A stretch of 64,000 nucleotides of DNA from an uncultured Ruminococcus sp. (GCA_964624685.1 CAZUYA010000001.1:7744-71743); one strand, 5' to 3'. Counted from the stretch's first letter, positions 4,508 through 24,731 are shown. The notes: generated by a model not told the origin, from the sequence alone. Numbers and translations: made by a program.

Positions 4508-4533
4508 ATCAAAAAACAAAGGAGATTAAAACA

Positions 4534-5022: not shown

Positions 5023-5062
5023 AGCGTGAATGACGCACGACGACGGAAATGGAGGAGTCGGA

Positions 5063-5770
5063 ATGTCGATGAACGGACTGGAAAAAATCACCGGTAAGAT
5101 TCTTTCCGAGGCAAACACACGTGCCGAAGAGATTCTTGCCGACGCACGGGCAAAATGTGCCGATATGGACGCAGAATATGCTGAACGTGCGCAAAAAATC
5201 AAAGATTCTTTGTCTGAAGATGCGGCAAAAATCGGAATGGAACGTGTTTCTCGAGCAAAAGCAGAAGCGGAAACATACCAACGAAATTTGCTGTTACAGA
5301 CACAAAGCGATTTGATCGACAAAGTATTTGACGGTGCTTTGGAATGGGTTCGCCGATTGGAGCCGGCTCAGTACACCGAGTTGTTGACCGGGCTTCTTTG
5401 TGCGGCTGTTTTGGAACAAGTTGAGTCGGAGCGAGTTGCTTCGGCTTATGGGACAGAAGATGCGGTGATTCCCGCAAATTACGATGTCCTGATGAATCAA
5501 CGTGATCACGACAAATACGGTTCAACCGTGGTGGAAGGTGCAAAAAAGAAGTTGCACGGTCGAATTTCGGAGGAGTGGCTTGCAAAGTTGCGATTGGATG
5601 GAAGATCTGTTCCCATGGACGGCGGTTTGATCCTGCGTATGGATGACGTGGAGATCAATTGCACGTTGCCGCTGCTTTTTGCACAATTGCGGGCTGAATG
5701 TGAGACCGATGTTGCGCAGGCATTATTTGAAGTCAAGGGCAATTTCGGATCGGGAGCGATGCAAAAATGA
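5063..5770 (+). CDS. ntpE: V-type ATP synthase subunit E
   Basis: The N-terminus is a charged helix (LEKITGKILSEANTRAEEILADARAK), which is E-subunit-like. ATG 5063 has a GGAGGAG RBS. Confidence 0.85.
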   Translation: MSMNGLEKITGKILSEANTRAEEILADARAKCADMDAEYAERAQKIKDSLSEDAAKIGMERVSRAKAEAETYQRNLLLQTQSDLIDKVFDGALEWVRRLEPAQYTELLTGLLCAAVLEQVESERVASAYGTEDAVIPANYDVLMNQRDHDKYGSTVVEGAKKKLHGRISEEWLAKLRLDGRSVPMDGGLILRMDDVEINCTLPLLFAQLRAECETDVAQALFEVKGNFGSGAMQK

Positions 5771-6756
5771 CGGATTATTTATTCGGAAGTGCGCGTGTGC
5801 GTGCATTGGAAGGATCGCTGATCGGTCGTGATCGGATGATTGAGATTTTGCAAGTGCCGAATGAAACGGCGGCATATGAAGCGTTGGAACAATGCGGAGT
5901 CTCGCTTTGCCGTGATGCTGACGGGAAAGTACAACGTGAGGATACATTGTTATCTGTTTTGAAAAAAGCGTATCAAGCGGTCGAGGATGCGGTGCCGGAC
6001 GATGCCTTGCTTTCTCTATGGCGGTTTCCTTATGATTGCAATAATGTGAAAGCCGCTATCAAGGCGTTTTATCGTCGAATCGATCCCATATCCATGATGT
6101 TTGATTTCGGAACAGTGAGCGTCGATACTGTGATGGCTATGATTGCCGATGGAAATCCGAGAGAACTTCCGCCAGAAATGAAAAAGGCAACGGCGGAAGC
6201 CATGTCGGCTTATGCGAAAACAAAAAATCCGCAGTGGATCGATCTGTTGTTGGATCGTGCTTGCTATGCAGATATGTTGCATGTAGCTCAAAATGGCGAA
6301 AATGCGTATATTTTGCGATTGTTACAGTCAAAAATTGATTTGTTGAATCTGATGATGACGGTGCGTGTTTTGCGGATGCGAGAGAGTAACGCGGAAGCTT
6401 TGCTGACGGAAACTTTGCTCGCAGGCGGAAGTTTGCCGCAATCGTTTTGGCTGAAAGCGTTTGAAAACGGCGAGTCGTATTTGTGGAGCCGTTGGTCGGA
6501 AACCGCTTACGGAAGCAGTCCTTTTTTCGGAAACGGAACAGCGTGCGAGTTGTCTGTGATCGAACGTGCGACCGATAATTATTGGATGTCGATGATTCGT
6601 GAAACGAAGTTGATTCCTTTGGGAATCGAGGTGATTGTTTCATTTTTGTTGGCAAAGGAATATGAAGTTAAAAATTTGCGCATTGTGTTAGCCGGAAAAG
6701 CGGCAGGACTTTCCGTGGATACCATTCGTGAAAGGATGCGGGACAGTTATGTATAA
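5767..6756 (+). CDS. ntpC: V-type ATP synthase subunit C (eukaryotic d homologue)
   Basis: 329 aa. Assigned by operon position between E and F and by ATGA overlap with the E stop. The helical repeat protein is typical of subunit C. Confidence 0.85.
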   Translation: MTDYLFGSARVRALEGSLIGRDRMIEILQVPNETAAYEALEQCGVSLCRDADGKVQREDTLLSVLKKAYQAVEDAVPDDALLSLWRFPYDCNNVKAAIKAFYRRIDPISMMFDFGTVSVDTVMAMIADGNPRELPPEMKKATAEAMSAYAKTKNPQWIDLLLDRACYADMLHVAQNGENAYILRLLQSKIDLLNLMMTVRVLRMRESNAEALLTETLLAGGSLPQSFWLKAFENGESYLWSRWSETAYGSSPFFGNGTACELSVIERATDNYWMSMIRETKLIPLGIEVIVSFLLAKEYEVKNLRIVLAGKAAGLSVDTIRERMRDSYV

Positions 6757-7069
6757 AATCGGAATGATCGGTGATCGCGATACCGTGCTTGGATTTATGG
6801 CATTGGGATTTGTTGTGGAAGATGTTACGGATATCGAGGAAGCCGCAAAAAAATTACACTCCATGGCAAAAAGCGGTCAGTATGCAATTATTTTTGTGAC
6901 AGAAAATTATGCCATGCAATTGGAAGAGGAAATCGCACGTTACAAAGATGCATCGTTGCCTGCTGTGATTTCCATTCCGGGACAAGGCGGAAGTACGGGA
7001 TATGGGATGAACAATATTCGTTCTGCCGCCGAACGTGCTGTCGGCGCGGATATTCTGTTTAAGGAATAG
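6749..7069 (+). CDS. V-type ATP synthase subunit F
   Basis: 106 aa ([21 protein letters not shown]...IIFVTE), an F-subunit signature. It overlaps the end of subunit C by 8 nt. Confidence 0.88.
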
Positions 7070-7088
7070 AAGAAAGGCTTGTGAAAAA

Positions 7089-8861
7089 ATGGTAGAAGGA
7101 AAAATTTTGAAAGTATCCGGACCGTTGGTGGTTGCCGAAGGAATGCGGGAAGCGAATCTGTTCGATGTGGTTCGTGTCGGTGCAAAAAAACTGATCGGCG
7201 AGATCATTGAGATGCACGGAGATCGTGCTTCCATCCAAGTTTATGAGGAGACTGCCGGCATCGGTCGCGGCGATCAGGTGATTTCCACAGGTGCGCCGCT
7301 GTCTGTCGAATTAGGACCCGGACTTTTATCAAATATCTATGACGGCATTCAACGACCGTTGGAGACGATGCGGATCAAAGTCGGATCAAATTTGACACGC
7401 GGGATTGATGAACCTGCATTGGACAGAGATCACGTTTGGCATTTTGAGGCAGCATTACAGTTTGGCGATCAAGTGAAACCTGGGGATATTTACGGAACGG
7501 TGCAGGAAAACGATGTTATTTTACACAAGATCATGGTACCGCCGAAGACGTATGGAACCATCGTGGAATTACGTTCCGGAGATTTTAAGGTGACGGATCG
7601 CATCGGTAAGATCAAGTATGCCGACGGAACGATCGAAAACATTACTTTGATGCAAAAATGGCCTGTACGTGTGGCACGACCGTATCAACAAAAATTGCCG
7701 CCGGTCGATCCGATGATTACGGGACAACGAGTGATCGATGCGCTGTTTCCGATTGCGAAAGGCGGAACTGCTTGCGTTCCGGGACCGTTTGGCTCCGGAA
7801 AAACCGTGGTACAGCATCAACTTGCAAAATGGAGTGATGTGGATCTTGTGGTTTATATCGGATGCGGAGAACGCGGAAACGAAATGACCGATGTGTTGCG
7901 TGAGTTTCCTGAATTGATTGATCCGCGAACCGGAAAATCTTTAATGGAACGCACCATTTTGATTGCAAATACTTCGGACATGCCTGTAGCGGCGCGTGAA
8001 GCGTCTGTTTATACCGGAATTACCATTGCCGAATATTTTCGCGATATGGGATATTCGGTTGCAGTCATTGCTGATTCCACTTCCCGCTGGGCTGAAGCTT
8101 TGCGTGAAATGTCGGGACGTTTGGAGGAGATGCCCGGAGAAGAAGGGTATCCGGCTTATCTGACCTCGCGGTTGGCGCAGTTTTATGAACGCGCCGGAAA
8201 AGTCGTATGTCTTGGATCCGACGGACGGCAGGGAGCTTTGTCTGCAATCGGTGCGGTTTCTCCGCAGGGCGGTGATATTTCCGAGCCGGTTACACAGGCG
8301 ACTTTGCGCATTGTGAAGGTGTTTTGGGGATTGGATGCTACCTTGGCATATCGTCGGCATTTTCCGGCAATCAACTGGTTGAACTCCTATTCTCTCTATC
8401 GTGACCGCCTTTCCGGCTGGTTTTCGGAACACGTATCCAAGCAATGGATGGAGTACACCGGCCGGTGCTTAAAAACGTTGCAATTGGAAGCAGACTTGCA
8501 GGAGATTGTGAAATTGGTGGGAATGGACGCGCTGTCTCCTTCCGATCGCTTGACGTTGGATGTTGCGCAATCCATCCGTGAGGATTTTCTGCAACAAAAT
8601 GCTTTTTTGGATGTAGATAGTTATACACCGTTGGAAAAACAGTTTGGAATTTTGCATTTGATCTTTACCTATGAGGATGAGGCTCGTCGCGCGATTGAGG
8701 CGGGCGTTGATATAGAGGATGTTTGTTTATTACCCGTACATGAGCGAATCGGACGTGCCAAATTGGTATCGAACGATTCTTATGAGCGGGAATTTGAAAT
8801 GATACGGACGGAAATTTCAGAACAGCTTGACCGTTTACGGACAGGTTTGGAACAAGATTGA
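7089..8861 (+). CDS. ntpA: V-type ATP synthase catalytic subunit A
   Basis: Has the Walker A motif GPFGSGKTV, and also [11 protein letters not shown] and [12 protein letters not shown] 7089 gives the canonical [15 protein letters not shown]-terminus. Confidence 0.97.
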
Positions 8862-10976: not shown

Positions 10977-11014
10977 CCTTCCGCCATACCTTATGGTATG
11001 GCGGAAGGGTTTTG
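10977..11014 (+). terminator. Rho-independent terminator of the V-ATPase operon
   Basis: A perfect 14-bp stem pairs ccttccgccatacc with ggtatggcggaagg, with loop ttat, followed by gtttt. Confidence 0.8.
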
Positions 11015-11064
11015 AAAGTAGGCTTCATGCCCAAACAAAAAATCAGAAAGAAACGGAGAAAAAC

Positions 11065-12858
11065 ATGAGTACCAACGTATCAAAGGCAAAGCGCGAGGCG
11101 TTGACGGAGAAAATCAAAGCCATCAAGACCTACATCGCAACCGCGCCGCAGGATGAGCATACGGCACAGCTTTTGCAATACGTTGCAGACATCGAGCGGG
11201 ACATCAAGGGGAAGAAATACGGACTGGTTTTTGAGGAACATCGAGAAGCCATCGACGAGATTTTGGAAACGCACGTTCCCGTTTTGACGGAAGACAAGAA
11301 CTTGTTGATCGACAACGGCGGGCAGATGAATTTCCTGATTGAAGGCGACAATTTGGCAAGCTTGAAACTGTTGGAGAAAACACATAAAGGCAAAATTGAT
11401 TTGATTTACATTGATCCGCCGTACAACACGGGAAACAAGGATTTTGTTTATGATGATAGTTTTGTAGACGGCGACGATGCTTTCCGACACAGTAAGTGGA
11501 TTTCCTTTATGTATCAAAGACTTGAAGTCGCAAAGCAACTCATGACAGATGAAGCAGCGATTTTTATCTCCATTGATGATAATGAACAAGCTGCATTAAA
11601 ATTGTTATGTGATGACATATTCGGTGCGGATAATTTTATGGGCACCATCATTCAAAACAAAATGAATGCAAAAAACGATACCGTAAACATTCAAAAAAAT
11701 CACGAGTATATTCTTGCATACAGAAAAAAATCAATTTACATCAGTGGGTCTCGTATAAAACCAACGTTATTGTTGATACAAAAAAAATATCGTCCTGTCG
11801 TGCAAGAAGGTGAACGATACTATTACATTGGAGAGGCGATTACAACACGAGGCGTCGGCGGAACATTGAATGCTCGTCCGAATTTGGGATACACAATATA
11901 CTACAATCCCATTACAGCAGATAAAGTTGCTGTTGCCGATTACGATATAGAACTCGCACGAATATCCAATAAAGCAGATGAAATCTATCATCACGATGAA
12001 ACGTATATTTCACGCGGATACATTCCGATTTTACCGCCAAAGGTACGTGGCAAATTGGGATGTTGGACATGGGCATTGGAAAAATTTAATCAAGAAACCG
12101 ATAACATTTTGATTACAGGGAAATATCCGAACTACACGGTTAAAAAACGTACATTTGTTTCTGCCGAAAGCATTGTGGAAAGAGACGGAAAACTGTTTTA
12201 TATTTCCATAGAACAAAGCAATTCCAGAAGTGTTTTAGAGTTTTCCACAAACGACGGAACAAATACGCTTACAAACGTTATGGGAACAAAAGCGACGTTT
12301 AGTAATCCTAAAAATCTTGAAATGATACAATATCTTGTTTCGTTAAAGCAAGAGAAAGAGGCAACCATTCTCGACTTTTTTGCCGGCAGCGGAACAACGG
12401 GACACGCGGTGATGAAGTTGAATGCCGAAGACGGCGGGAATCGAAAATTCATCCTTTGTACCAATAACGAAAACAACATCTGCCGTGATGTGACCTATGA
12501 ACGCATCAAACGTGTGATTGCCAAAGAGGACTACAAAGCAAGTTTGAAGTATTACAAAGTGGATTACTTGCCCACGTCGGACAAATTCTATGACGAATAT
12601 GCCGATGACTTGCTGTTACATGTCAAAGAGTTGGTTGAATTGGAAAATGCGATCCGCTTTGACGGCAATTTCGAAGTTGCCATCCTTTTGACCGATGAAG
12701 AGTTGGACGAGTTTGTATCGGCAATTCCGGACGATTGCCGAATTGTTTATTTGGGTTACGACGTTTTGCCGTCGTCAGAACAAGAACAGTTGCTTGCCGC
12801 GCGCCGCGTGGAAATCAAATGGATTCCGGATTATTATTACAGCGACTTGGAGGGGTAA
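11065..12858 (+). CDS. Site-specific DNA methyltransferase, beta-class N6A/N4C, type III Mod-like, with no Res partner
   Basis: Motif IV DPPY lies at 11413-11424 (IYIDPPYNTGNKDFVYDD). It sits upstream of motif I FFAGSGTTGHAV at 12376-12393, which is the IV-TRD-I order. The N-terminal KYGLVFEEH box and the C-terminal tail are typical of Mod proteins. ATG 11065 has a GGAG RBS. Confidence 0.88.
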   Translation: MSTNVSKAKREALTEKIKAIKTYIATAPQDEHTAQLLQYVADIERDIKGKKYGLVFEEHREAIDEILETHVPVLTEDKNLLIDNGGQMNFLIEGDNLASLKLLEKTHKGKIDLIYIDPPYNTGNKDFVYDDSFVDGDDAFRHSKWISFMYQRLEVAKQLMTDEAAIFISIDDNEQAALKLLCDDIFGADNFMGTIIQNKMNAKNDTVNIQKNHEYILAYRKKSIYISGSRIKPTLLLIQKKYRPVVQEGERYYYIGEAITTRGVGGTLNARPNLGYTIYYNPITADKVAVADYDIELARISNKADEIYHHDETYISRGYIPILPPKVRGKLGCWTWALEKFNQETDNILITGKYPNYTVKKRTFVSAESIVERDGKLFYISIEQSNSRSVLEFSTNDGTNTLTNVMGTKATFSNPKNLEMIQYLVSLKQEKEATILDFFAGSGTTGHAVMKLNAEDGGNRKFILCTNNENNICRDVTYERIKRVIAKEDYKASLKYYKVDYLPTSDKFYDEYADDLLLHVKELVELENAIRFDGNFEVAILLTDEELDEFVSAIPDDCRIVYLGYDVLPSSEQEQLLAARRVEIKWIPDYYYSDLEG

Positions 12859-13026: not shown

Positions 13027-13067
13027 ACAAAATGCGTCCGATGTCAAGAGGTCGGACGCATTTTTTC
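13027..13067 (-). terminator. Terminator of the EamA gene (bidirectional hairpin)
   Basis: An 11-bp stem pairs aatgcgtccga (13031-13041) with tcggacgcatt (13052-13062), flanked by A and T runs. Confidence 0.75.
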
Positions 13068-14038
13068 TAAAAAATATGATCTGAATCCATAGAATCAACG
13101 GAGTTTGCATTGGAATGAGATGACTTTGAATTGAAAAATTGCGGAAGTTGTGCGGTGATAATGGCGGCAAAGACCAAGGTGCATCCGACCAATTCCTGTG
13201 TTGAAAGCAGATTGCCGGAGAAGAACCAACCACCCAATGCGGCAAAAACACTTTCCAAACTCATTACAATGGAGGCAAGGGCAGGATCGGCATACTTTTG
13301 ACCGTAGATTTGGAGGGTATATCCGATTCCGCTGGAAATAATGCCAAGATACAGGATTTGCGGAACGGCGGTCAAAACCGCTTCCCAAACGATGTGTTCC
13401 AGTAGAAGGGAAAGCAGTCCGGAAAGCATCCCGCAAACCAAGAATTGCATCAGAGACAGCAATGTTCCGCCGACCGTATTGCCGTAACGATTCACCGCAA
13501 GAATGTGAAAACTGTAGCTAAAGGCACAGATCAACATCAATCCGTCGCCGAGGTAAATGTTGTCAAGTCCTCCGGAAAAACTGAGAAGATAGATTCCGAC
13601 CGTTGCAAAGCCGACGGCGATCCAAACGGGGACGTGAATGCGTTTCCCCAAAAAAGCCGAAATGATGGGGACCAGTACCACATACAATGCGGTTAAGAAC
13701 CCTCCGCGTGCTTCACTGGCGACACCTTGCGGATAATTGACCAATCCGAATTGTTGAAAATTGACACTGATTGCCAACAGAGTACCGCATATCAGACCGC
13801 CCATGATCATTTCTTTTCGTTGTAACGGATCCGAAGGTATAATGGGGGTGTCTGTTCGCAATTTTTTGAGCAACAGGAGAAGAAAAAGAAAGAATGCGCC
13901 GATAAAAGAGCGCAGACAGTTGAGAAGAAAAGGTGGGACGGCATCCGCGGCTTGGCTTTGAGCCACCATGGCAAGCCCGAAAATCAAGGCTGCTGTTGCC
14001 AACAGAATGCTTCCTTTAAGGTTGTTGTGTTTTTTCAT
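13067..14038 (-). CDS. EamA/DMT family transporter
   Basis: About 323 aa with about 10 TM segments in the two-repeat EamA architecture. I chose the internal ATG at 14038 (MKKHNNLKGSILLATAAL) over the ORF-track start at 14110. Confidence 0.8.
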   Translation of the reverse strand: MKKHNNLKGSILLATAALIFGLAMVAQSQAADAVPPFLLNCLRSFIGAFFLFLLLLLKKLRTDTPIIPSDPLQRKEMIMGGLICGTLLAISVNFQQFGLVNYPQGVASEARGGFLTALYVVLVPIISAFLGKRIHVPVWIAVGFATVGIYLLSFSGGLDNIYLGDGLMLICAFSYSFHILAVNRYGNTVGGTLLSLMQFLVCGMLSGLLSLLLEHIVWEAVLTAVPQILYLGIISSGIGYTLQIYGQKYADPALASIVMSLESVFAALGGWFFSGNLLSTQELVGCTLVFAAIITAQLPQFFNSKSSHSNANSVDSMDSDHIF

Positions 14039-14163
14039 AAATTGATTTCCTTTGATACAATGCCTTATTATTATATCACAATCGATCCGAAAAATCAATA
14101 GAATTTTCAAAAATACAGAAACGGATTAAAAATGTGAATTTTTTTTGATTCTGTAAGTTTTTC

Positions 14164-14192
14164 TTGCAAAACCTTAAAAATAATGGTATAAT
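14164..14192 (+). promoter_or_regulatory. Sigma-A promoter of the TetR gene
   Basis: -35 TTGCAA (14164-14169), a 17-nt spacer, then TGgTATAAT (-10 at 14187-14192). Confidence 0.6.
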
Positions 14193-14230: not shown

Positions 14231-14806
14231 TTGTCGCAGTTGACAAAAAAAGCCATTGTGGAAACGACACTTGCTATGGCGGAACGGTATCCGTTAAACA
14301 AGATTACGGTACGCGATATTGTGGAAGCTTGCGGAATTACCAGAAACACCTTTTACTATCATTTTCATGATATTTACGAAGTTTTGGAATCTTCCCTTGA
14401 GGATGCTTTTGCGCAATTGACGGGAACGTGGGATGACGATGAAAAGGCATTGCTCGTTTTGATCGATTTTTGTGAGACGCACAAAAGAATCTTTCTTAAT
14501 CTTTATAAAGCGGTCGGTATTGACGGAATGTCGTCCTACGCAAGGCGCAAAGTTCGCATGATTTTGAATGAGCGGTTGCGGGCAGAATCGGCAGATTTGA
14601 ATGTGTCGGAGTCGGATCTTGCTTTGATCGCCGAATTTTATGAGGAAGCACTGATCGGCATTTGGGTTCATTGGTTGCGGGATGAACGTTCCAATCGTAC
14701 ACCGGAGGACGAACGCGCGATCATTGAACGGATTCGGGTGATTTTTCACGGGCATTTGCGATTTTGTCTTGAAAATTGCGCGCATCGTCCGGAACATTCG
14801 ACTTGA
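14231..14806 (+). CDS. TetR/AcrR family regulator, DhaS-like
   Basis: TTG start with a GGGAGGAG RBS. The HTH region ITVRDIVEACGITRNTFYYHFHDIYEVL matches the DhaS-type TetR N-terminus as I recall it. Confidence 0.85.
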   Translation: MSQLTKKAIVETTLAMAERYPLNKITVRDIVEACGITRNTFYYHFHDIYEVLESSLEDAFAQLTGTWDDDEKALLVLIDFCETHKRIFLNLYKAVGIDGMSSYARRKVRMILNERLRAESADLNVSESDLALIAEFYEEALIGIWVHWLRDERSNRTPEDERAIIERIRVIFHGHLRFCLENCAHRPEHST

Positions 14807-14932
14807 ATTTTGTTACAAAATGCCGCAAATGCACAAAAAACAGACATCGGCGGCGAATTGTACATAGATTTTTGAATTGTAGTTTGGTAAAATATGACCG
14901 TGATTTTGAATCGGCAGAAAGGAGAATGTACT

Positions 14933-15535
14933 ATGAATGAGCATTTCGGTGAAAAACCAAACAGCATCATTGTAAGAAGTGCAAAGATTGTTCATTTGTG
15001 TTCCTCGGTGATTTTTTTGTTGGCGGGGATCGTGGTCGGCGCATTGCCGATGTTGGACAGTGATACCTTCAGCGCACTGGGGAATATCGTGGTCGGGATT
15101 GCCAGTATCGTGATCGGCGTGACCGGAATTTACGGCTATTTTTCCAATGATATGTATCGTTTGGCGTTTCAATCGGATTTTGCTTTTGGAATTTTCAATG
15201 TTGTCTTCGGTATTCTGCTGATTATCAATCCGGTGCAACTTCCCGTTCTTTTACCGACGGTGATTTCCATTTTGGCGTTATTGGACGGCGGAAACAAATC
15301 CCAAATTGCTTTGGAGGGACAGCGGTTCGGCCTTCACAAGTGGTATCTTGTGTTGTTGTCGGCGTTGCTTGAAATTGCGGCAGGGGTTGTTTTGATGATT
15401 TTGGCTTATCACAATGTGGAAACCGTGCATGTATGGATGGGCATTGCCATGGGCATTGTCGGCGTGACCAATTTTTGGACGACGATGTACACGGTTCGTA
15501 TCCGGGAAAATCACCAAAATTTTACGGATAAATGA
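14933..15535 (+). CDS. DUF308/HdeD-like membrane protein
   Basis: 200 aa with 6 predicted TM helices in repeated pairs. GAAAGGAGAA RBS before ATG 14933. Confidence 0.6.
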   Translation: MNEHFGEKPNSIIVRSAKIVHLCSSVIFLLAGIVVGALPMLDSDTFSALGNIVVGIASIVIGVTGIYGYFSNDMYRLAFQSDFAFGIFNVVFGILLIINPVQLPVLLPTVISILALLDGGNKSQIALEGQRFGLHKWYLVLLSALLEIAAGVVLMILAYHNVETVHVWMGIAMGIVGVTNFWTTMYTVRIRENHQNFTDK

Positions 15536-15546
15536 GGAAAAACAAC

Positions 15547-16446
15547 ATGAGAAAAGTTCAAGTGCTGACCGATTCCTGCTCCGACCTTTCCGAGGAGCTT
15601 TTGAAGAAATACGGAATTGACTATTGCCGCATGAACACGGTTTATCAGGAAAAAGAAACTCCGGCATCCCTGCTTTGGGAATATTACACGCCTTCCGAAT
15701 TGTACGGAATCATGCGTGACGGTCATCGCGTCAAAACAACACAGGTACCTCCGGAGGAATTTCAACGGGTGTTCGGAATTTATTTGGAGAAAGCATGCGA
15801 CATCGTTTACATTGGTTGTTCCACAAAACAGTCCGGTTCGGTGAATACCGCTCTGGTTCTATCAAAAAAGTTGTCCGAGCAATATCCGGATGCGAAAATT
15901 TACTGTATTGATTCGTTGAATGCCAGCATCGGCGAAGGGATGCTTGCCGTTCGTGCGGCAGAGTTGGCATCGGAAGGAAAGAGTGCCGATGAGATCTATG
16001 AAACGGTGATGTCGTTGCGCAATCGTGTCAACGAGTATGTAACCGTGCATTCATTGGATGCGCTGAAACGTGCGGGAAGAGTCAAGGCAAGTGCGGCATT
16101 TTTCGGAAATTTGATGGGAGTAAAGCCGATTTTGATCTCCGACGCAAACGGCGAACAGACTCCTGTCAAAAAAGTCAAGGGACGCTTGAAATCTTTGAGT
16201 GAAATGGTGGCAATGTTGAAGGAGTCCATTACAGAACCGGAGCAACAGGTCATCTATTTGGCACATGCTGATTGTCCGGCAGAGGAAGTGACGGCTTTGA
16301 AACAGATGATCATGGAGCAAATTCCGTGCCGTGGAATTGAGACGGTCTATATCGGTCCCATCATCGGTGCCAGCATCGGTCCGGACGCGATCGGAATTTG
16401 GGGCTACGGTCAGGAAATTACATACAAGGTCGGAGACGCAAAGTGA
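15547..16446 (+). CDS. fakB: DegV family fatty-acid-binding protein (FakB-like)
   Basis: N-terminus MRKVQVLTDSCSDL, about 300 aa, with the typical DegV layout. It is directly coupled to the DAK2 gene by a TGATG overlap. Confidence 0.88.
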   Translation: MRKVQVLTDSCSDLSEELLKKYGIDYCRMNTVYQEKETPASLLWEYYTPSELYGIMRDGHRVKTTQVPPEEFQRVFGIYLEKACDIVYIGCSTKQSGSVNTALVLSKKLSEQYPDAKIYCIDSLNASIGEGMLAVRAAELASEGKSADEIYETVMSLRNRVNEYVTVHSLDALKRAGRVKASAAFFGNLMGVKPILISDANGEQTPVKKVKGRLKSLSEMVAMLKESITEPEQQVIYLAHADCPAEEVTALKQMIMEQIPCRGIETVYIGPIIGASIGPDAIGIWGYGQEITYKVGDAK

Positions 16447-18110
16447 TGGCGATACAAGAACTTGACGGGATTCAATGGGCGGGCATGATCGGTGCCGGTG
16501 CGGCAAATTTGCACGCGCATATGGAAGAAGTAAATGATTTGAACGTATTTCCGATTCCGGACGGAGATACCGGAGAAAATATGATGTTGACCATGCAAGG
16601 AGGGCTTACGGCTCTTCGAACCGATGAAGCCGATCTGTCCGACGTTTCCGAAAAAATCGCAGGCGGAATGTTGTTGGGCGCGCGCGGAAATTCCGGTGTT
16701 ATTCTTTCACAATTTTTTGAAGGAATTTCAAAAGGGTTTCATACCTATCAAACAGCCGATGTCTGTACATTGGAAAAAGCGATTGCATGCGGTGTTGATT
16801 GTGCTTTTGAATCGGTTGTTACTCCGACGGAGGGGACGATCCTGACGGTCATGCGGGAAGCGTGCGGTCATGCGGCTGATTGCCGTTGTCAAACGGTCAA
16901 TGAATATTTTGAAGCTTTTTTGTCAGAGGCAAAACGATCTTTGGCGCGGACACCAGATCTGCTTCCCGTATTGAAGGAAGCAGGCGTTGTGGATTCCGGA
17001 GGTGCGGGATTGATCTATATTACGGAAGGAATGTATTCTTTCCTTAACGGGAACAGCGAAGCTGTTGTTTCCGTGAATGTTCCGACTGCTCATGCAGTCA
17101 ATCCGGATCTGTTTACCGAGAATGATGTGATGCAGTTCGGTTACTGTACCGAGTTGTTGTTACGGTTACAGACCGTAAAAACGAATCCGGAACAGTTTGA
17201 TGTCGGTGTGATCACTTCCTATTTGCAAGAGATCGGAAATTCCGTTGTAACGGTGAAAAACGGTAGCATTGTAAAACTGCATGTACATACGATGACACCT
17301 TATAAAGTTTTGGAATTTTGCCAACGTTACGGAGAATTTTTAACGGTCAAAATCGAAAATATGATGTTGCAACACAATGAAACTGTGGAGAAGGAAAATG
17401 ATTCGGCTGTTTTGACGATGGCAAACGGAACGGATGAATCGGTTCGTCGTCCGTTTGCCGTGATTGCCGTTGCTACCGGCGAAGGGATCCGCGAGGCATT
17501 TTGCAATATGGGAGCCGATGAGGTGATCTGCGGTGGGAAAACCATGAATCCGAGCGCCGAGGATTTTTTGCATGCCGTTGACACCGTTCATGCCGATACG
17601 GTCTTTATCCTGCCAAACAACGGGAATGTCCTGTTGGCGGCGCGTCAAGCGGCGCAAATGTGCAAGCAGAGTGATGTGCGCGTTATTCCGACGCATTCCA
17701 TCGGAGATGGGTATGCGGTTTTATCCATGTTGGATTTTGATTCCGGTAATGCGGATTTGATCGAGGCACAGATGAATGAAGCGATGCAAGGCGTTTTGAC
17801 CGCTGAAATTTCACAAAGTATCCGCGATGCCGAAATGAACGGTATCAAGGTGCAAAAAGGCGACTACATCGGAATTATCGGAAAAGAGATCGTTGCTGCC
17901 GGATCGGACAGAACCACCGTCGTTGCGCAAACCGCGCAACATTTGGATCTTGCAACACATGAAGTTCTTTTACTGATTCGGGGACACGGCGTCCCAGCGG
18001 AGGAAGCGGAAAGCGCCGCTTTGACACTTCGCCGGACTTACCCGATGACCGAATTGTGTGAGTCGAACGGCGGTCAGGAAATTTACGATTTTATTTTGGT
18101 TGCCGAATAA
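16446..18110 (+). CDS. fakA: DAK2 domain-containing protein (YloV / fatty acid kinase FakA-like)
   Basis: Has the Dak2 phosphate-binding region DGDTGENM and also LGARGNSGVILSQ. About 555 aa with a C-terminal DegV-like domain. Confidence 0.85.
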   Translation: MAIQELDGIQWAGMIGAGAANLHAHMEEVNDLNVFPIPDGDTGENMMLTMQGGLTALRTDEADLSDVSEKIAGGMLLGARGNSGVILSQFFEGISKGFHTYQTADVCTLEKAIACGVDCAFESVVTPTEGTILTVMREACGHAADCRCQTVNEYFEAFLSEAKRSLARTPDLLPVLKEAGVVDSGGAGLIYITEGMYSFLNGNSEAVVSVNVPTAHAVNPDLFTENDVMQFGYCTELLLRLQTVKTNPEQFDVGVITSYLQEIGNSVVTVKNGSIVKLHVHTMTPYKVLEFCQRYGEFLTVKIENMMLQHNETVEKENDSAVLTMANGTDESVRRPFAVIAVATGEGIREAFCNMGADEVICGGKTMNPSAEDFLHAVDTVHADTVFILPNNGNVLLAARQAAQMCKQSDVRVIPTHSIGDGYAVLSMLDFDSGNADLIEAQMNEAMQGVLTAEISQSIRDAEMNGIKVQKGDYIGIIGKEIVAAGSDRTTVVAQTAQHLDLATHEVLLLIRGHGVPAEEAESAALTLRRTYPMTELCESNGGQEIYDFILVAE

Positions 18111-18156
18111 AATATTTTGGAAGATTTTCCTGCATTCTGCAGGATTTCCTCCTCTA

Positions 18157-18184
18157 AATGGGCTGTTTTTGCGAACAGCCCATT
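18157..18184 (+). terminator. Stem-loop after fakA (weak terminator)
   Basis: An 11-bp stem pairs aatgggctgtt with aacagcccatt. The downstream T-run is poor (cggaagtttt). Confidence 0.45.
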
Positions 18185-18215
18185 CGGAAGTTTTGCAGAA
18201 AGGTTACGATGATTT

Positions 18216-19523
18216 ATGAAAAAGACAAAAAGATCCTCCCCCCATGAGTTTCCGTTGCCGGAATTTACCAAGGAAATGAAACAAACGCACAAAATTCTGG
18301 CACCGGATATTTTTCCCGTACATATGGAATTGATCAAGGAAATTTTCGGAATGTATGGATATGATCTGGAAGTTTTGAAAAGCCGCGGAAAACAAGTGAT
18401 TGACAAGGGATTGGAATATATTCACAATGATATGTGTTATCCTGCAGTCTGTGCTTCCGGACAACAGCTCTATGCTTTGACATCCGGAGAATATGATCCG
18501 CATAAATGCGCATTGATTCAGTTTCAAACCGGAGGCGGTTGTCGTGCATCCAACTATATTTGGTTGTTGCGTAAAGCACTCCACAATATGGGAATGGATT
18601 ATGTACCAGTAATCTCCGTGAGCTTTACGGGAATGGAGAAGTCCGGCGGATTCAAGATTACACCAATGATGATTGCCAAGGCAATGGTTGCTATTATTTA
18701 CGGCGATATGCTGATGTTGTTGCGGAATCAAGTGCGTCCGTATGAAGCGCATCCTGGGGATTGTCAACGTGTGATCGATAAATGGTATCGTGAGTTGGGA
18801 GAGCAGTTCAAACACAACAAAGGGCTGTTCGGCAAACATTTTCGCAAGAATTTGCACGAGATTGCCAAGGATTTTCATGCGATTGAACGCTTGGATATTC
18901 AAAAAACAAAAGTCGGGATTGTCGGGGAAATTTATGTCAAATATTCTCCGTTCGGTAACAACGGTTTGGAAGAGTTCCTGGATTCGCAGGACTGTGAATA
19001 TATGGTTCCCGGTGTACTTGGATTCTTTCAATTCTTTTTTGACAATAAACAGACCGATTATCGTTTGTACGGAAAAAGTTTGAAGTCGGCATTGATTTCC
19101 AGGGGGGGGACTTGGCTGACCAATCGCATTGAACGGACTTTTTGTGAAGTGTTGGCAGAGTATCCGGAATTTACCGCTCCGACCTCTTTTTCGCATATTC
19201 GGAAATTGGGGGACAAAATCATCGGACGCGGTGTCAAAATGGGGGAAGGTTGGTTGTTGCCTGCCGAGATTGCCGAGTTGATCGAAAAAGGATACAGCAA
19301 CGTCATTTGTGCACAACCGTTCGGTTGTTTGCCGAATCACATCGTCGGAAAAGGGACGATCCGAACGTTGCGTGAATTGTATCCGAATGCAAATATTTGT
19401 CCGATTGATTATGATGCGGGAGCTTCCAAAGTCAACCAGGAAAATCGGATCAAACTGATGCTGGCATTGGCAAAGGATTCCGCATTTGCATCTGAAAAAG
19501 AGAGCGAGGTGATACCGGTATGA
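18216..19523 (+). CDS. 2-hydroxyacyl-CoA dehydratase / double-cubane-cluster-protein family subunit (HGD-D-like)
   Basis: 435 aa with family-typical Cys motifs: HNDMCYPAVCASGQ, QTGGGCRASNY and CAQPFGCLPNH. ATGA overlap with the following activase gene. Confidence 0.8.
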   Translation: MKKTKRSSPHEFPLPEFTKEMKQTHKILAPDIFPVHMELIKEIFGMYGYDLEVLKSRGKQVIDKGLEYIHNDMCYPAVCASGQQLYALTSGEYDPHKCALIQFQTGGGCRASNYIWLLRKALHNMGMDYVPVISVSFTGMEKSGGFKITPMMIAKAMVAIIYGDMLMLLRNQVRPYEAHPGDCQRVIDKWYRELGEQFKHNKGLFGKHFRKNLHEIAKDFHAIERLDIQKTKVGIVGEIYVKYSPFGNNGLEEFLDSQDCEYMVPGVLGFFQFFFDNKQTDYRLYGKSLKSALISRGGTWLTNRIERTFCEVLAEYPEFTAPTSFSHIRKLGDKIIGRGVKMGEGWLLPAEIAELIEKGYSNVICAQPFGCLPNHIVGKGTIRTLRELYPNANICPIDYDAGASKVNQENRIKLMLALAKDSAFASEKESEVIPV

Positions 19524-22435
19524 AACGGATCGGAGTTGATATTGGTTCAACAACCATCAAATGTGTCGTATTTGATGAGGACGGAAATTTGTTGTATTCC
19601 AGTTATGAGCGGCACAAATCTCGCATATCGGAGAAGATGGCAGAGCTTTTACGTGCGGTGAATGCACGCTTTCCACGTGAAAACATGCTCCTCTCGATTT
19701 CCGGTTCTGCCGGGATGGGGATGGCGAACGATATGGAGCTTCCGTTTGTACAGGAAGTGTATGCGACTCGTTTGGCAGTCAAAGAGCGGTTTCCGGATAC
19801 GGACACCGTGATTGAGTTGGGAGGCGAGGATGCAAAAATTTTGTTTCTGACCGACGGATTGGAAGTTCGTATGAACGGAACATGCGCCGGCGGTACGGGA
19901 GCTTTCATTGATCAAATGGCTGAGCTGATGAGCGTACAGCCCGATGCAATGAACGCTTTGGCGGAACAAAAGGAAAAAATCTATACGATTGCTTCTCGTT
20001 GCGGTGTGTTTGCAAAATCCGATGTTCAACCGTTGCTCAATCAGGGGGCAAAAAAAGAGGATATTGCGGCAAGTATTTTTTATGCCGTTGTCAATCAAAC
20101 CGTTGCGGGATTGGCACAAGGCAGACAGATCGAGGGAAATGTGCTCTATTTGGGAGGTCCTTTGACTTTCTTCAACTGTTTACGAGAAGCGTTTGACGAT
20201 GTATTGAAAGTGAAGGGTGTTTGCCCGGAAAATTCTTTGTATTTTGTTGCGATCGGTGCGGCATATTCAACCGGTTCCAAAGCTTTTGACCTTTTGGAAT
20301 TGGCAGAACGTGCAGAACATTATTCTTCCTCTCACGGATACCTCGGGTGTGCGCCGCTGTTTGCTTCCCAAGAAGAATTCTATCAATTTACCAAACGGCA
20401 TGAGGCTGATTCGGCGGGGATTCGCACATTGACCGAACCTTCCGGGGAGATGTATTTGGGAATTGATGCCGGTTCCACTACGGTTAAGGCTGTTCTTTGT
20501 GATGCGGATGGAAACTTGTTTCGGATGCTTTACACGCCCAACAGCGGCAATCCCGTACCTTTGATCCAAAATTATTTGCAAGAGCTTTACCGTGATTACC
20601 CGGATATTCATATTGCGAGTGCGGCTGTGACAGGATATGGCGAGCAAATTATTCGAAGTGCGTTCCACATTGATCACGGAGTTGTGGAGACGATTGCGCA
20701 TTATACGGCAGCGAAGCACTTTTGTCCGGATGTTGATTTTATTCTGGATATTGGCGGGCAGGACATTAAATGTTTCCGGATTAAAAACGGTGCCATCGAC
20801 AATATCTTTCTGAATGAAGCTTGTTCCTCCGGATGCGGTTCGTTTTTGCAAACGTTTGCGGGTGTATTGGGATATTCCATGAAAGAATTTGCGCAACTTG
20901 CTTTGTTTGCCGATGCACCGGTTGATCTCGGCTCTCGGTGCACCGTTTTTATGAACAGTTCGGTCAAGCAAGCGCAAAAGGACGGTGCCGGTATTGAAAA
21001 TATCTCAGCCGGTCTTTCGATCAGTGTTGTAAAGAATGCTTTGTATAAGGTGATTCGTTGTGTGGATCCGACGCATCTCGGTCAAAAAATTGTCGTACAG
21101 GGCGGGACATTTCTCAATGATGCTGTCTTGCGTGCGTTTGAGCAGGAGACTGGGCGTGAAGTTTTGCGTCCGTCGGTTGCGGGATTGATGGGGGCATACG
21201 GAGCGGCTTTGTATGCAATGGCGCATACGTCGGCAGGCAATCGGAGCCGTGTGATCGGAGCCGAGGAGTTGGCGGTATTTCAGCACTCGGTGCAAGCTGT
21301 GACTTGCAAAGGATGCAGCAATCACTGCCGTTTGACCGTGAATACTTTTTCATCCGGAGAAAAATATATTGCCGGTAATCGTTGCGAAAAACCTTTGGCA
21401 ATCAAATCGGAACAGAAAAAATACGACCTGTATGAATACAAACTGTCATTGCTATCCGAATATCGAAAAAATGTGCGTGAAGAGGGCAAACAGACAGTCG
21501 GGATGCCGATGGGATTGAATCTGTATGAGTTACTTCCTTTTTGGTACACGTTGTTTACGGAGTTGGGATATAATGTGGTGGTGTCCGGGGATTCCAATCA
21601 CCGATTGTATGTCAGTGGGCAACACACGATTCCGTCGGATACAGTTTGTTATCCCGCCAAGCTCTTACACGGACACATGGAGGATCTGTTTCATAGGAAC
21701 GTCGATCTGATTTTTTATCCCAGCATGACCTATAATTTGGATGAACATTTGGGAGAAAATCATTATAATTGTCCCGTTGTCGCCTACTATCCCAAAGTGA
21801 TTCAGAATAATGTGCGTTTCCCGGATTCTGTGGGGTATATCAATGGGTTTATCGGGTTACACAATCCGAAATTGTTTGTCAAGTATTTTATCCGCATGAT
21901 GGAAGATTATGATATTCATCCGGACCCGGCGAAGGTAAAGCGTGCCGCTTCTGCTGCATATGCGGCTTACAACGCCTATATGCAAAAGGTGCGGGATAAA
22001 GCAGATGAATATTTGGAACTTGCCAAGCGTGAGGATCGGCAAGTGATCGTATTGGCGGGAAGACCTTACCATATGGATCCGGAGATCAATCACGGCATCA
22101 ATCGGTTGCTGACCGATATGGGAGCGGTCGTCGTAACCGAGGATTCGGTTTGTCATCGTGCCGAGAATTTCCGCACAACGGTGTTGAATCAGTGGACATA
22201 TCATTCCCGTTTGTACAATGCGGCAAAATTTGTTTGTGAATGCCAAGATCAAAAAATCAATTTGGTTCAGTTGGTTTCGTTCGGATGCGGTGTGGACGCG
22301 GTTACGACCGACGAAACAAGGGCGATTATCGAGAGCGCCGGAAAACTCTACACACAGATCAAGATTGATGAAATTACCAATTTGGGTGCTGTAAAAATTC
22401 GGTTGCGCAGTCTCTTTGCGGTATTGGATCATTAA
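19520..22435 (+). CDS. CoA-substrate-specific enzyme activase: two BcrAD/BadFG ATPase modules fused to a dehydratase-like domain
   Basis: Two ASKHA phosphate-1 motifs (GVDIGSTTIKCVVFD and GIDAGSTTVKAVLCD). Cluster-ligand contexts are TCAGGTGAF / SRCGVF and ACSSGCGSF / SRCTVF. A Cys-rich linker CKGCSNHC is present. The C-terminal domain has SDTVCYPAKLLHGH and SFGCGVDA. Confidence 0.85.
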   Translation: MKRIGVDIGSTTIKCVVFDEDGNLLYSSYERHKSRISEKMAELLRAVNARFPRENMLLSISGSAGMGMANDMELPFVQEVYATRLAVKERFPDTDTVIELGGEDAKILFLTDGLEVRMNGTCAGGTGAFIDQMAELMSVQPDAMNALAEQKEKIYTIASRCGVFAKSDVQPLLNQGAKKEDIAASIFYAVVNQTVAGLAQGRQIEGNVLYLGGPLTFFNCLREAFDDVLKVKGVCPENSLYFVAIGAAYSTGSKAFDLLELAERAEHYSSSHGYLGCAPLFASQEEFYQFTKRHEADSAGIRTLTEPSGEMYLGIDAGSTTVKAVLCDADGNLFRMLYTPNSGNPVPLIQNYLQELYRDYPDIHIASAAVTGYGEQIIRSAFHIDHGVVETIAHYTAAKHFCPDVDFILDIGGQDIKCFRIKNGAIDNIFLNEACSSGCGSFLQTFAGVLGYSMKEFAQLALFADAPVDLGSRCTVFMNSSVKQAQKDGAGIENISAGLSISVVKNALYKVIRCVDPTHLGQKIVVQGGTFLNDAVLRAFEQETGREVLRPSVAGLMGAYGAALYAMAHTSAGNRSRVIGAEELAVFQHSVQAVTCKGCSNHCRLTVNTFSSGEKYIAGNRCEKPLAIKSEQKKYDLYEYKLSLLSEYRKNVREEGKQTVGMPMGLNLYELLPFWYTLFTELGYNVVVSGDSNHRLYVSGQHTIPSDTVCYPAKLLHGHMEDLFHRNVDLIFYPSMTYNLDEHLGENHYNCPVVAYYPKVIQNNVRFPDSVGYINGFIGLHNPKLFVKYFIRMMEDYDIHPDPAKVKRAASAAYAAYNAYMQKVRDKADEYLELAKREDRQVIVLAGRPYHMDPEINHGINRLLTDMGAVVVTEDSVCHRAENFRTTVLNQWTYHSRLYNAAKFVCECQDQKINLVQLVSFGCGVDAVTTDETRAIIESAGKLYTQIKIDEITNLGAVKIRLRSLFAVLDH

Positions 22436-22452: not shown

Positions 22453-23085
22453 ATGACGTTTATCATTCTTTGTATTGTTTCGGCGGTCAGTGCATATCTG
22501 GTCGGAGGGATTAACGGTGCAATCATTTTGTCCCGTTTGGTCTATCATGAGGATATTCGCAAGTTGGGAAGCGGAAATCCCGGTTTTACAAATTTCAAAC
22601 GGGTTCACGGATTTTGCCCCGCCACATTTGCGGCAATGGCGATTGATATTTTGAAAACAATCATCCCTGTTTTGACTTTCCGAATTCTGTTTGGAGAGTT
22701 GTGCGATGAGGCACAGTTCGGTGCAACTTTTACCTTGTTATGTTGTATGATCGGACATTGCTTTCCTGTGTGGTATAAATTTCGCGGTGGGAAGGCTGTC
22801 ATGGCATATCTTTCCGGAATTTGGTTTGTGGATTGGCGCATGGGATTGATTTGCTTCGGATTGTTTGTTTTACTTCTTTTGACGATTCGGTATATGTCTT
22901 TGGCGTCTATCTCGTTTGCTTTTTCTTCTCCCATCGTGTTGGCGATTTTGGGATGTGACGGTTGGAAGGTGATGACAACATCTGTGATTCTTTCGGCACT
23001 GGTAATTGTTCGACATCGGCAAAATATTGTTCGTCTGTTCCATGGGACGGAATCAAAATTTACTTTGAAAAATAAGAAAGCGTGA
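22453..23085 (+). CDS. plsY: Acyl-phosphate:glycerol-3-phosphate acyltransferase PlsY
   Basis: 210 aa, polytopic. Has the motifs GSGNPGFTNFKR and FRGGKAV. Confidence 0.93.
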   Translation: MTFIILCIVSAVSAYLVGGINGAIILSRLVYHEDIRKLGSGNPGFTNFKRVHGFCPATFAAMAIDILKTIIPVLTFRILFGELCDEAQFGATFTLLCCMIGHCFPVWYKFRGGKAVMAYLSGIWFVDWRMGLICFGLFVLLLLTIRYMSLASISFAFSSPIVLAILGCDGWKVMTTSVILSALVIVRHRQNIVRLFHGTESKFTLKNKKA

Positions 23086-23111
23086 TCGTCGTCGGTTCGA
23101 CGTTGAAGCGC

Positions 23112-23157
23112 AAAAATCGTTCCGACTTCGGTGAAAATCGAAGTCGGAACGATTTTT
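23112..23157. terminator. Bidirectional terminator between plsY and the spoVB-like gene
   Basis: A 19-bp perfect stem pairs aaaaatcgttccgacttcg with cgaagtcggaacgattttt. Confidence 0.85.
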
Positions 23158-23174
23158 GCACAGGTTCCGGTTTT

Positions 23175-24731
23175 CTAAGACCGTTTGGGTGTCAAAATTG
23201 TACCGATCCAGTGCAAATCTTCTTTTTTTACGGCACCCGTCAGAAGTAAAAAGATGAAATACAGACAAACGGCGAAGAGACAGTGAACCACAATGGCAAT
23301 GCCGCCGTCGGAGATGTGCAGAGCGGTCAGTGAAAAAATTCCTCGCGCGACGTAGGTGGCTCCGACAATACAGATCAACGGTTTGTAAATCCATTTGAAA
23401 AGTCGGACGGGAGCTTGGCTGATGTTGAGCAGATGTGTGATGCTGCACACCGTGTTAAATAATTCCGAAAAATAAATGCTGAACAGGTAGCCGTTGATTC
23501 CGTATTGCGGAATCAATACCCAAACCAGGATCACGGAAAGAAGAGCGTCCATGACATTGATCTTCATGGAGTAGACTTGTTCGCCAAGTCCTTTCATCAT
23601 GGCATCCGTTGCAGTGTCCACGTACATGACAGGGATTAATGGTGCCAAGATGCGGATATAGTTTCCGGCGTCGGTATGAGGGTACAGTGCTTCTCCGATT
23701 TCAAAGGAAAAGCAACATAGGATTCCCGCAACGCCGATGGAAAAGATCATGGAAAGTGCCCATACTCGCGAGATCATATAACGAATGTGCCGATTGGAAT
23801 TTTGTACTGCCGCTTCGGCAAGTTCCGGAACAAGCAAACCGGAAAAGGAAGAAATGAGGGCGGCGGGGTATAAAATGACCGGCATTGCCATGCTGTGAAT
23901 GTTGCCGTAAGCGATGAGTGCATCGGCATGTGTGCTGCCGCTGTTTCGAAGCCCTTCCGGGATGAGGATGTGTTGCAGGGTGACCAGACCGGAACGAATA
24001 TATGCGGTTACGGCGATCGGAATCGTAATTTTTAACAACTTTTTGCCTTCCTTACGTCCGTTGTCATGATCGTTCTGATGGAAATGTTTTTTTCGATCCT
24101 GTAAATAGAGCAACAGTTCCAAAAGGAAGGAGCCTACTTCGGCAAGCACGCCTCCGAGTACCAAAGCGCAACAGGTGTTCTCCACGCTGCCGGCGTAAAC
24201 GGCTGATAACAGACGCATTGTAATACCGATTTTCAAACTCTGTTCCGTTACCTGCACGGCGGCACTTTTATACGGTCGGCGAACTGCATTAAAATAGCCG
24301 CCCCATGCCGAGGAAAGTGAAATGAGCGGCAATGTAATACCGAGTAAACGAAGGGAGGAGACGGTGCGACTGTCTTTGAGCCATTCGTTGCCGATGACAT
24401 CGGCAAAAGCAAAGAGCAAAAACGAAGCGAAGATGCCGAATCCAAATGCGTAGCAGGTCGCGCGACGCATAGCCGGTGCAACACGATTGGAGCGGTGCGA
24501 TCCGATTGCGTCAACCACCACTCGTGTAACTCCCAGATGAATGCCGGACGTTGCCAGCGTCAGCGCAAAGCCGTAAACGCCGGACAGCAGAGAGAATAAT
24601 CCCATGGTTTCGGCTCCGGCACGATTGGAGATGTAGACTTGAAAGCTTACACCGACCGTGCGCATGAAAAGGGAGGCGACGGTCAAGAGTATTGCATTCC
24701 AAAACAATTGTTTCGCATGAGGTTTCATCAT
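23175..24731 (-). CDS. spoVB: MOP-superfamily flippase, stage V sporulation protein B-like
   Basis: 518 aa with about 14 TM segments. The N-terminus (FMRTVGVSFQVYISNRAGAETMGLFSLLSGVYGF) is typical of SpoVB/MurJ-type proteins. Confidence 0.7.
   Translation of the reverse strand: MMKPHAKQLFWNAILLTVASLFMRTVGVSFQVYISNRAGAETMGLFSLLSGVYGFALTLATSGIHLGVTRVVVDAIGSHRSNRVAPAMRRATCYAFGFGIFASFLLFAFADVIGNEWLKDSRTVSSLRLLGITLPLISLSSAWGGYFNAVRRPYKSAAVQVTEQSLKIGITMRLLSAVYAGSVENTCCALVLGGVLAEVGSFLLELLLYLQDRKKHFHQNDHDNGRKEGKKLLKITIPIAVTAYIRSGLVTLQHILIPEGLRNSGSTHADALIAYGNIHSMAMPVILYPAALISSFSGLLVPELAEAAVQNSNRHIRYMISRVWALSMIFSIGVAGILCCFSFEIGEALYPHTDAGNYIRILAPLIPVMYVDTATDAMMKGLGEQVYSMKINVMDALLSVILVWVLIPQYGINGYLFSIYFSELFNTVCSITHLLNISQAPVRLFKWIYKPLICIVGATYVARGIFSLTALHISDGGIAIVVHCLFAVCLYFIFLLLTGAVKKEDLHWIGTILTPKRS

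Follow-up and report, generated by a model that had tools for sequence, protein, structure and literature searches.

What reaction is carried out by the split, activase-containing enzyme whose two genes lie within a lipid gene cluster of an uncultured Ruminococcus sp., and how does its gene order relate to that of its relatives? The question is raised by a stretch of 64,000 nucleotides of this organism (GCA_964624685.1 CAZUYA010000001.1:7744-71743), hereafter the window, in which two overlapping genes occupy positions 18216-22435, counted from the first letter of the stretch. A preliminary description of this DNA had proposed a split and apparently permuted dehydratase-like/double-activase enzyme, embedded between fakB-fakA and plsY. 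Our analysis indicates that the pair, named here plsR and plsA, very probably encodes a two-subunit, oxygen-independent plasmalogen synthase of the benzoyl-CoA reductase/2-hydroxyacyl-CoA dehydratase (BCR/HAD) superfamily. This assignment is based on orthology, domain content, conserved Cys residues and predicted fold, and the chemistry would be that of characterised relatives from Clostridium perfringens, Enterococcus faecalis, Lactococcus cremoris and Bifidobacterium longum subsp. suis. The two genes, both taken from the open reading frame (ORF) listing and its translation, are as follows.

18216-19523, + strand: plsR, 435 amino acids (aa), ATG start, 50% identical to C. perfringens PlsR
19520-22435, + strand: plsA, 971 aa, ATG start, 53% identical to C. 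perfringens PlsA

The 435-aa and 971-aa proteins are also labelled P0001 and P0002, respectively; G000 is the source genome, the remaining G-numbers are other genomes and L-numbers are retrieved loci. The ORF listing confirmed the ATGA overlap at the plsR/plsA junction and the combined length of 1406 aa, and the Cys motifs pointed out beforehand were all found in the translations, namely CYPAVC (C74 and C79), GGGCRASNY (C109) and FGCLPNH (C371) in PlsR and CYPAKLLHGH (C710) and FGCGVDA (C923) in PlsA. Pfam recognised BcrAD_BadFG in two stretches of PlsA and DUF2229 at residues 659-877 (4.8e-72), NCBIfam placed the acyl-CoA dehydratase activase domain (TIGR00241) in two stretches as well, and the activase modules matched HadI/HgdC (6e-30 and 4e-28). 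PlsA is thus laid out as two activase (ATPase) modules, a Cys4 linker and a C-terminal DUF2229 reductase/dehydratase domain, in agreement with the two BcrAD/BadFG modules and the second dehydratase-like domain that had been proposed for it. The DUF2229 match of PlsR remained below the Pfam threshold (22.3 bits vs a cut-off of 29.4), and the same sub-threshold signature was found in C. perfringens PlsR. NCBIfam gave nothing for PlsR, and it contains neither a PlsR model nor a PlsA-specific model. HGD-D (PF06050) was not matched by either protein at E <= 0.01, so that the earlier term 'HGD-D-like' for the 435-aa protein holds at the level of its predicted fold, presented below, but not at that of Pfam. 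A pseudogene or frameshift origin of the split was ruled out, since both ORFs are intact, the split point is that of C. perfringens and the arrangement is kept in a whole clade.

PlsA and PlsR of C. perfringens (CPE1194/CPE1195; UniProt Q8XL48/Q8XL47) are BCR/HAD-family proteins that convert the sn-1 ester of glycerophospholipids to a vinyl ether without oxygen (PMC12838417, PMC9702350, PMC8788747, PMC10191378); the source study, Jackson et al. 2021 (ACS Chem Biol 16:6), is quoted here as it is given in PMC12838417, PMC9702350 and PMC8788747. The preliminary description had regarded the family as mostly without known substrate and had overlooked that the function of this subfamily has been known since 2021. 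The reference genes were located by means of the cloning primers published for C. perfringens plsA-plsR (PMC12838417, Table S6). When the gene-specific part of these primers was scanned across genome contigs, two Clostridium sp. genomes matched and the C. perfringens representative did not. PlsR of one of the matched genomes shares a 90%-identity cluster with C. perfringens proteins including BAB80900.1 of strain 13, which is identical to PlsR of the C. perfringens locus L054. In L054 both primers matched exactly, at positions 3065 and 7263, spanning 4199 bp. A fragment of this size was the one with which plasmalogen synthesis was first conferred (PMC12838417), and the span comprises plsA (3065-5992) and plsR (6001-7263).

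Against this reference, P0002 showed 53% identity to PlsA (975 aa) and P0001 50% identity to PlsR (408 aa, E 4e-146). The fused enzymes verified in Escherichia coli are 48-55% (PlsA) and 41-42% (PlsR) identical to the same reference (PMC12838417), so the window pair is at least as close to it as they are. The source genome carries one copy of the plsR-plsA pair. The best-hit comparison was made in Clostridium sp. LIBA-8841 (G041), whose PlsR belongs to the C. perfringens 90% cluster and which served as a stand-in for a C. perfringens genome; P0002 scored 1128 bits on the split PlsA of this organism vs 975 bits on a fused 1423-aa paralogue. The fused paralogue (G041:C3:322467-325394) is 49% identical to P0002 and is present in addition to the split plsA-plsR; as LIBA-8841, a close relative of C. 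perfringens, has both forms, fused and split enzymes can coexist in one genome.

An AlphaFold model of PlsR, built from a 32-sequence alignment, was confident (pLDDT 92.5, pTM 0.92). In a Foldseek search of the PDB the top 14 matches of this model were catalytic subunits of HadBC (2-hydroxyisocaproyl-CoA dehydratase), the double-cubane cluster protein (DCCP), BzdNO and MbdON, with TM-scores of 0.42-0.53 and identities of 8-13%. PDB sequence searches with P0001 alone and with the 32-sequence PlsR profile matched nothing meaningful, and the link between PlsR and the HAD, DCCP and BCR enzymes was found only by fold search and not by sequence. The resemblance to HadBC and BzdNO, like the database name '2-hydroxyacyl-CoA dehydratase', would be expected from a soluble HAD/BCR-type acyl-CoA dehydratase/reductase with a CoA thioester as its substrate. 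We consider such an activity extremely improbable, because neither protein has an HGD-D match, the solved HAD, BCR and DCCP subunits are as distant as the above identities and TM-scores indicate, the PlsR-family profile found no PDB sequence, the closest characterised relatives are lipid ester reductases and no CoA-transferase or fermentation genes are found nearby.

The conserved Cys residues are in keeping with a plasmalogen synthase of the BCR/HAD type. In an alignment of PlsA with C. perfringens PlsA and two fused homologues, the activase residues C122/C161 and C435/C474 were invariant, with 39 residues between the members of each pair, corroborating the cluster-bridging Cys contexts noted earlier in both modules; the HgdC structure paper reportedly gives Cys127/Cys166, with the same 39-residue spacing. 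Also invariant in this alignment were C439, the DUF2229-domain residues C710, C751 and C923, and a CxxCxxxC...C motif (C596, C599, C603 and C622) between activase module 2 and DUF2229, a Cys4 site that could hold a further Fe-S cluster or bind zinc. In PlsR, residues C74, C109 and C371 were invariant in 32 family members, and C79 of CYPAVC was not. The whole pattern would fit one bridging cluster in a pseudo-dimeric activase and one three-Cys cluster per catalytic half. DCCP is said, after Jeoung and Dobbek in 2018, to have six Cys ligands for its [8Fe-9S] cluster in one subunit, and PlsR has only three family-invariant Cys, a comparison made by count. When the PlsR profile was compared with a profile of the PlsA DUF2229 region, only the first Cys motif was matched, and weakly so (41% probability, E 2.7e-4), which suggests, short of proof, that the two catalytic halves may be distant paralogues.

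A mechanism can be proposed in which the two tandem HgdC-type ATPase modules of PlsA would form a pseudo-dimer, with two Cys per module holding a bridging [4Fe-4S] cluster, and ATP hydrolysis would push a low-potential electron from this cluster to the catalytic HAD-like pair made up of the PlsA DUF2229 domain and PlsR. The three invariant Cys of each catalytic domain would serve as ligands of a [4Fe-4S] cluster in which one iron is open, and the sn-1 acyl ester carbonyl of a glycerophospholipid would be reduced and dehydrated to give a 1-alk-1'-enyl (vinyl) ether.

Regarding the gene order, a six-frame search of 40 relatives for P0001-like sequences found them as stand-alone genes or forming the C-terminal portion of open frames 1411-1453 aa long (G019, G025 and G009), as well as, at 31% identity, in the C-terminal part of a more distant frame of 1491 aa (G038). 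Fused proteins of about 1400 aa in the order activase-activase-dehydratase-dehydratase, which the preliminary description had supposed for many Clostridia, therefore do exist. P0001 aligned to residues 1005-1410 of the 1411-aa fused protein P0124 (42% identity, E 2e-107) and P0002 to residues 10-983 of the same protein (46% identity), showing that the upstream gene corresponds to the usual C-terminal third, as had been supposed, and that the gene order here is swapped with respect to the fused and the C. perfringens forms. An exhaustive HMMER search of 1.84 billion representatives agreed with this: the homologues either stand alone, with a length of about 400-440 aa, or form the C-terminal domain of larger proteins, which have about 1400 aa or about 700-900 aa. 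Of the expression 'split and permuted', the second half stands, since the order is reversed, but the split itself is not unusual, C. perfringens being split at the same point. The preliminary description had named outcomes that would speak against it, namely alignment of the small protein to another region, lack of fused homologues or a neighbourhood that is not conserved, and none of these was found. The opposite fusion was seen in P0197 (L060:2341-6435, 1364 aa), a continuous ORF known from a single 6.5-kb JGI metagenome contig, in which a PlsR-like part (residues 4-411) is joined through about 20 linker residues to two activase modules and DUF2229 behind it; a DUF308 gene lies upstream of it.

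A close sample of 41 genomes, comprising the genus and the order, contained the plsR-plsA arrangement in seven genomes (G000, G024, G005, G013, G016, G007 and G012), the canonical plsA-plsR arrangement in 15 and fused forms in four (G019, G025, G009 and G038); a copy of the enzyme was absent from 16 of the 41. The order was also surveyed with an even sample of 201 genomes, using a concatenated query and scoring two candidates per genome, which makes the counts approximate. Among the matches listed, about 125 of the 201 genomes had the enzyme, the majority as plsA-plsR and about 30 as fused forms, and plsR-plsA was confirmed only in G000, G147, G173 and G093. Four further metagenome contigs, with PlsA 68-79% identical, all had the plsR-plsA order. 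In a maximum-likelihood tree of 28 PlsR sequences all nine plsR-plsA members formed one clade (support 100/99) and the fused forms a separate one (100/100), and C. perfringens PlsR fell among the split plsA-plsR forms, with a backbone that did not resolve. This single, well-supported clade implies that the swap is one lineage-specific rearrangement of an otherwise canonical split enzyme. As judged from the PlsR tree, the change in gene order arose once, in a clade of Clostridia.

The surroundings of plsR-plsA in the window contain the following features.

10993-12858, strand not stated: N6/N4 DNA methylase of 621 aa (Pfam N6_N4_Mtase), upstream of the lipid cluster
13067-14110, - strand: EamA transporter, between the DNA methylase and the lipid cluster
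14164-14192, + strand: sigma-70-like promoter candidate ahead of the TetR gene, TTGCAA-17-TATAAT with an upstream TG (consensus scan, pattern match only)
14231-14806, + strand: TetR-family regulator, first same-strand gene of the cluster (Pfam TetR_N and TetR_C_8)
14894-15535, + strand: DUF308 (HdeD-like) small membrane protein (Pfam DUF308)
15532-16446, + strand: FakB, DegV-family fatty-acid-binding protein (Pfam DegV, 2e-60)
16446-18110, + strand: FakA, fatty acid kinase subunit, from the likely ATG (ORF from TTG 16398; Pfam Dak2, FakA-like_M and FakA-like_C)
18135-18200, + strand: nested hairpin in the fakA-plsR spacer (RNA fold)
22453-23085, + strand: plsY, acyl-phosphate:glycerol-3-phosphate acyltransferase (Pfam G3P_acyltransf, 5e-44)
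23110-23159, no strand: inverted repeat between convergent genes, likely bidirectional terminator (sequence read)
23175-24731, - strand: MATE/flippase-like gene, convergent with plsY

Pfam thus confirmed the DegV/FakB, FakA and PlsY genes, all on the + strand, between which the pair had been placed. The TGA stop of fakB overlaps the likely ATG of fakA as TGATG, and plsY follows plsA after a gap of 17 nt with the ribosome-binding site AAAGGAA. The only longer gap among the fakB-fakA-plsR-plsA-plsY junctions is the fakA-plsR spacer of 105 nt, which contains the DNA palindrome CCTGCA-TTC-TGCAGG and the nested hairpin (-38.5 kcal/mol, z = -4.4; 0 of 200 shuffles were as stable). Neither a T-run after this hairpin nor an Rfam match to it was found, and the corresponding spacer of L057 measures just 19 nt, which shows that the clade does not conserve the hairpin throughout; possible roles are those of an element for RNA processing or stability, or of an operator. 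The repeat at 23110-23159 is perfect, of about 50 nt (AAAAATCGTTCCGACTTCG...CGAAGTCGGAACGATTTTT), and probably acts as a bidirectional terminator that closes the operon. Rfam searches over the operon gave only sub-threshold hairpin noise, including spurious 'miRNA' matches at this repeat.

When related genomes and metagenome contigs were inspected, the neighbourhood was found to recur. The complete fakB-fakA-plsR-plsA-plsY cluster was present in six independent genomes or contigs of the swapped clade (G000, G024, G005, L057, L058 and, from a different family, G093). G016 and G007 had plsR-plsA-plsY but no fak, and L056 had TetR-plsR-plsA only. The same type of TetR gene precedes plsR-plsA in L056, L057 and L058, the last of which also has the EamA gene, and a DUF308 gene is found in L058 and L060. 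This context supports a role in lipid metabolism, and the lipid or acyl-chain substrate predicted beforehand from the position of the genes appears to be right, given the orthology of the pair with the plasmalogen synthase PlsA/PlsR. The operon would then combine formation of the ether bond with additional gene copies for the activation of exogenous fatty acid (FakAB) and for its attachment to sn-1 of glycerol-3-phosphate (PlsY). A second FakA (C44:9898-11613, 46% identical to the window FakA) and a second PlsY (C26:2680-3246, 30% identical to the window PlsY) are encoded elsewhere in the source genome, meaning that the copies flanking plsR-plsA are extra paralogues. Since the earliest branch of the swapped clade in the PlsR tree is L057, with its full cluster, the clade may have inherited the embedding from its ancestor, some members losing it later.

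Two relatives have fakA followed directly by plsY, with no plsRA between them (G012:C8:419-2805 and G009:C147:8904-11205), and in G009 a fused plsAR gene lies about 2.5 kb beyond fakA-plsY. These two cases suggest that fakA and plsY formed a unit at an earlier stage and that plsR-plsA either entered it or has disappeared from it. PlsY of the window type (60-76% identical) was also seen in relatives without plsRA (G022, G020, G006, G014, G003 and G004).

The tight same-strand clustering, with its TGATG and ATGA overlaps and 17-nt gap, the recurrence of the cluster across families and down to 61% PlsA identity, and the fact that the window FakA and PlsY are second copies could also be explained if the enzyme acted on an early intermediate, either the acyl-phosphate formed by FakAB or the 1-acyl-glycerol-3-phosphate formed by PlsY, rather than on completed diacyl phospholipids, in which case the additional fakA and plsY copies would provide a dedicated route into ether lipids. 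We regard this as very improbable, since the verified PlsA/PlsR enzymes need no such partner genes to produce plasmalogens in E. coli (PMC12838417); moreover, many of the plsR-plsA operons and all the sampled plsA-plsR operons have no adjacent fak or plsY.

Several observations weigh against plsR-plsA as a plasmalogen synthase of a lipid operon. No fak/plsY linkage was found in the plsR-plsA members L056, L059, G147 and G173, the last three of which have no lipid neighbours at all; nor were the plsA-plsR forms among the 40 nearest relatives linked to fak/plsY, only G001 having a FakA gene, about 7 kb away. The family includes paralogues beyond PlsA, such as the fused copy of LIBA-8841 and the 31%-identical fused copy in G038, and the PlsR tree was built without E. 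faecalis PlsA and Thermotoga maritima Ger. Finally, PlsA, which forms vinyl ethers, and Ger, which forms saturated ethers, are inseparable by sequence alone (PMC13274423). The same ATP-driven reduction of the sn-1 ester could thus be Ger-like and yield a saturated 1-O-alkyl ether or a mixture of vinyl and alkyl ethers, all the more as Ger has been described as a 'modified PlsA' with the same core of two BcrAD_BadFG modules and DUF2229 (PMC13159169). A Ger-like product is nevertheless unlikely here. Each of the two verified Ger enzymes is one fused chain that carries additional small D/H domains (PMC13159169), an architecture (BBD core plus D/H domains in a single polypeptide, BBDHDDH or BBDHDHDH) that was not found in the window, where there are two genes and no HGD-D match. 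The window pair is split like C. perfringens PlsA/PlsR, to which it is 53% and 50% identical, and in the PlsR tree the plsR-plsA clade groups with the split plsA-plsR forms including C. perfringens.

A plasmalogen synthase encoded by plsR-plsA belongs to an enzyme family already known since 2021; the variant part is the gene order, and the locus is otherwise an ordinary family member, mostly of value for annotation. Species are classed as plasmalogen producers in surveys by the presence of a pls operon, and a link with inflammation and ferroptosis in the host has been drawn for the plasmalogens that gut anaerobes make (PMC10076029). The database names of the two proteins are still '2-hydroxyacyl-CoA dehydratase' and 'acyl-CoA dehydratase activase-related protein', and because of this misnaming and of the lack of a significant Pfam domain in the small subunit, reversed copies could escape rules designed for a fused gene or for plsA followed by plsR. 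That the pair is repeatedly found embedded between fakBA and plsY is a modest but testable hint that ether-lipid synthesis may be coupled to the uptake of exogenous fatty acids. A bolder proposal, which we consider quite improbable, is that in the swapped clade plsR-plsA is part of a self-contained, TetR-controlled module making ether lipid from scavenged fatty acid, in which dedicated FakB and FakA would activate the fatty acid, the PlsY paralogue would place it at sn-1 and PlsR-PlsA would reduce the same ester, possibly at the lysophosphatidate or acyl-phosphate stage. If true, it would revise the accepted view that bacterial plasmalogens are made only from finished diacyl phospholipids.

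Among known systems, the PlsR model has the same fold as the catalytic subunits of HadBC/HgdAB (with HadI/HgdC), BzdNO/MbdON and DCCP (with DCCP-R), and the ATP-coupled injection of low-potential electrons is common to all of them. The window enzyme differs in that its activase is duplicated and fused to one catalytic domain, and its substrate, by analogy with PlsA/PlsR, would be a membrane lipid instead of the CoA thioester of the HAD/BCR systems. Ger (T. maritima Tmari_0479 and Desulfatibacillum alkenivorans SHJ90043; PMC13159169) has in common with it the superfamily, the BBD core and the sn-1 ester substrate, and differs in being fused, in its additional small domains and in forming saturated alkyl ethers, a comparison made by description only (PMC13159169).

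The single-gene PlsA proteins of E. faecalis (EF1327, Q835P9), L. cremoris and B. longum subsp. suis, whose activity was verified in E. coli (PMC12838417), have the same domain content, but as a single chain of about 1415-1640 aa arranged Act1-Act2-Red1-Red2, whereas the window has two genes with Red2 first. The pls gene of E. faecalis is preceded by a TetR gene, EF1326 (PMC9702350), as in the window, and the fusion order of P0197 is the reverse of that of E. faecalis PlsA. The fused forms from the window's own taxonomic order are colinear with PlsA followed by PlsR; these forms of related genomes are 41-42% (PlsR part) and 46-48% (PlsA part) identical to the window proteins and make up the separate clade in the tree.

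The C. perfringens system is also made up of two proteins with the same split point, with two activase modules, the Cys4 linker and DUF2229 in the large subunit and a small subunit of about 420-435 aa with three conserved Cys. In C. perfringens, however, plsA precedes plsR with a short spacer, in contrast to the plsR-plsA order and ATGA overlap of the window. The neighbours are also different: a YgiQ-type radical SAM gene (L054:785-2773; Radical_SAM_N, Radical_SAM and DUF3362) lies directly upstream of C. perfringens plsA on the same strand and a two-component system, a response regulator and histidine kinase pair, directly downstream of plsR, whereas in the window the two genes are surrounded by the fak/plsY lipid operon.

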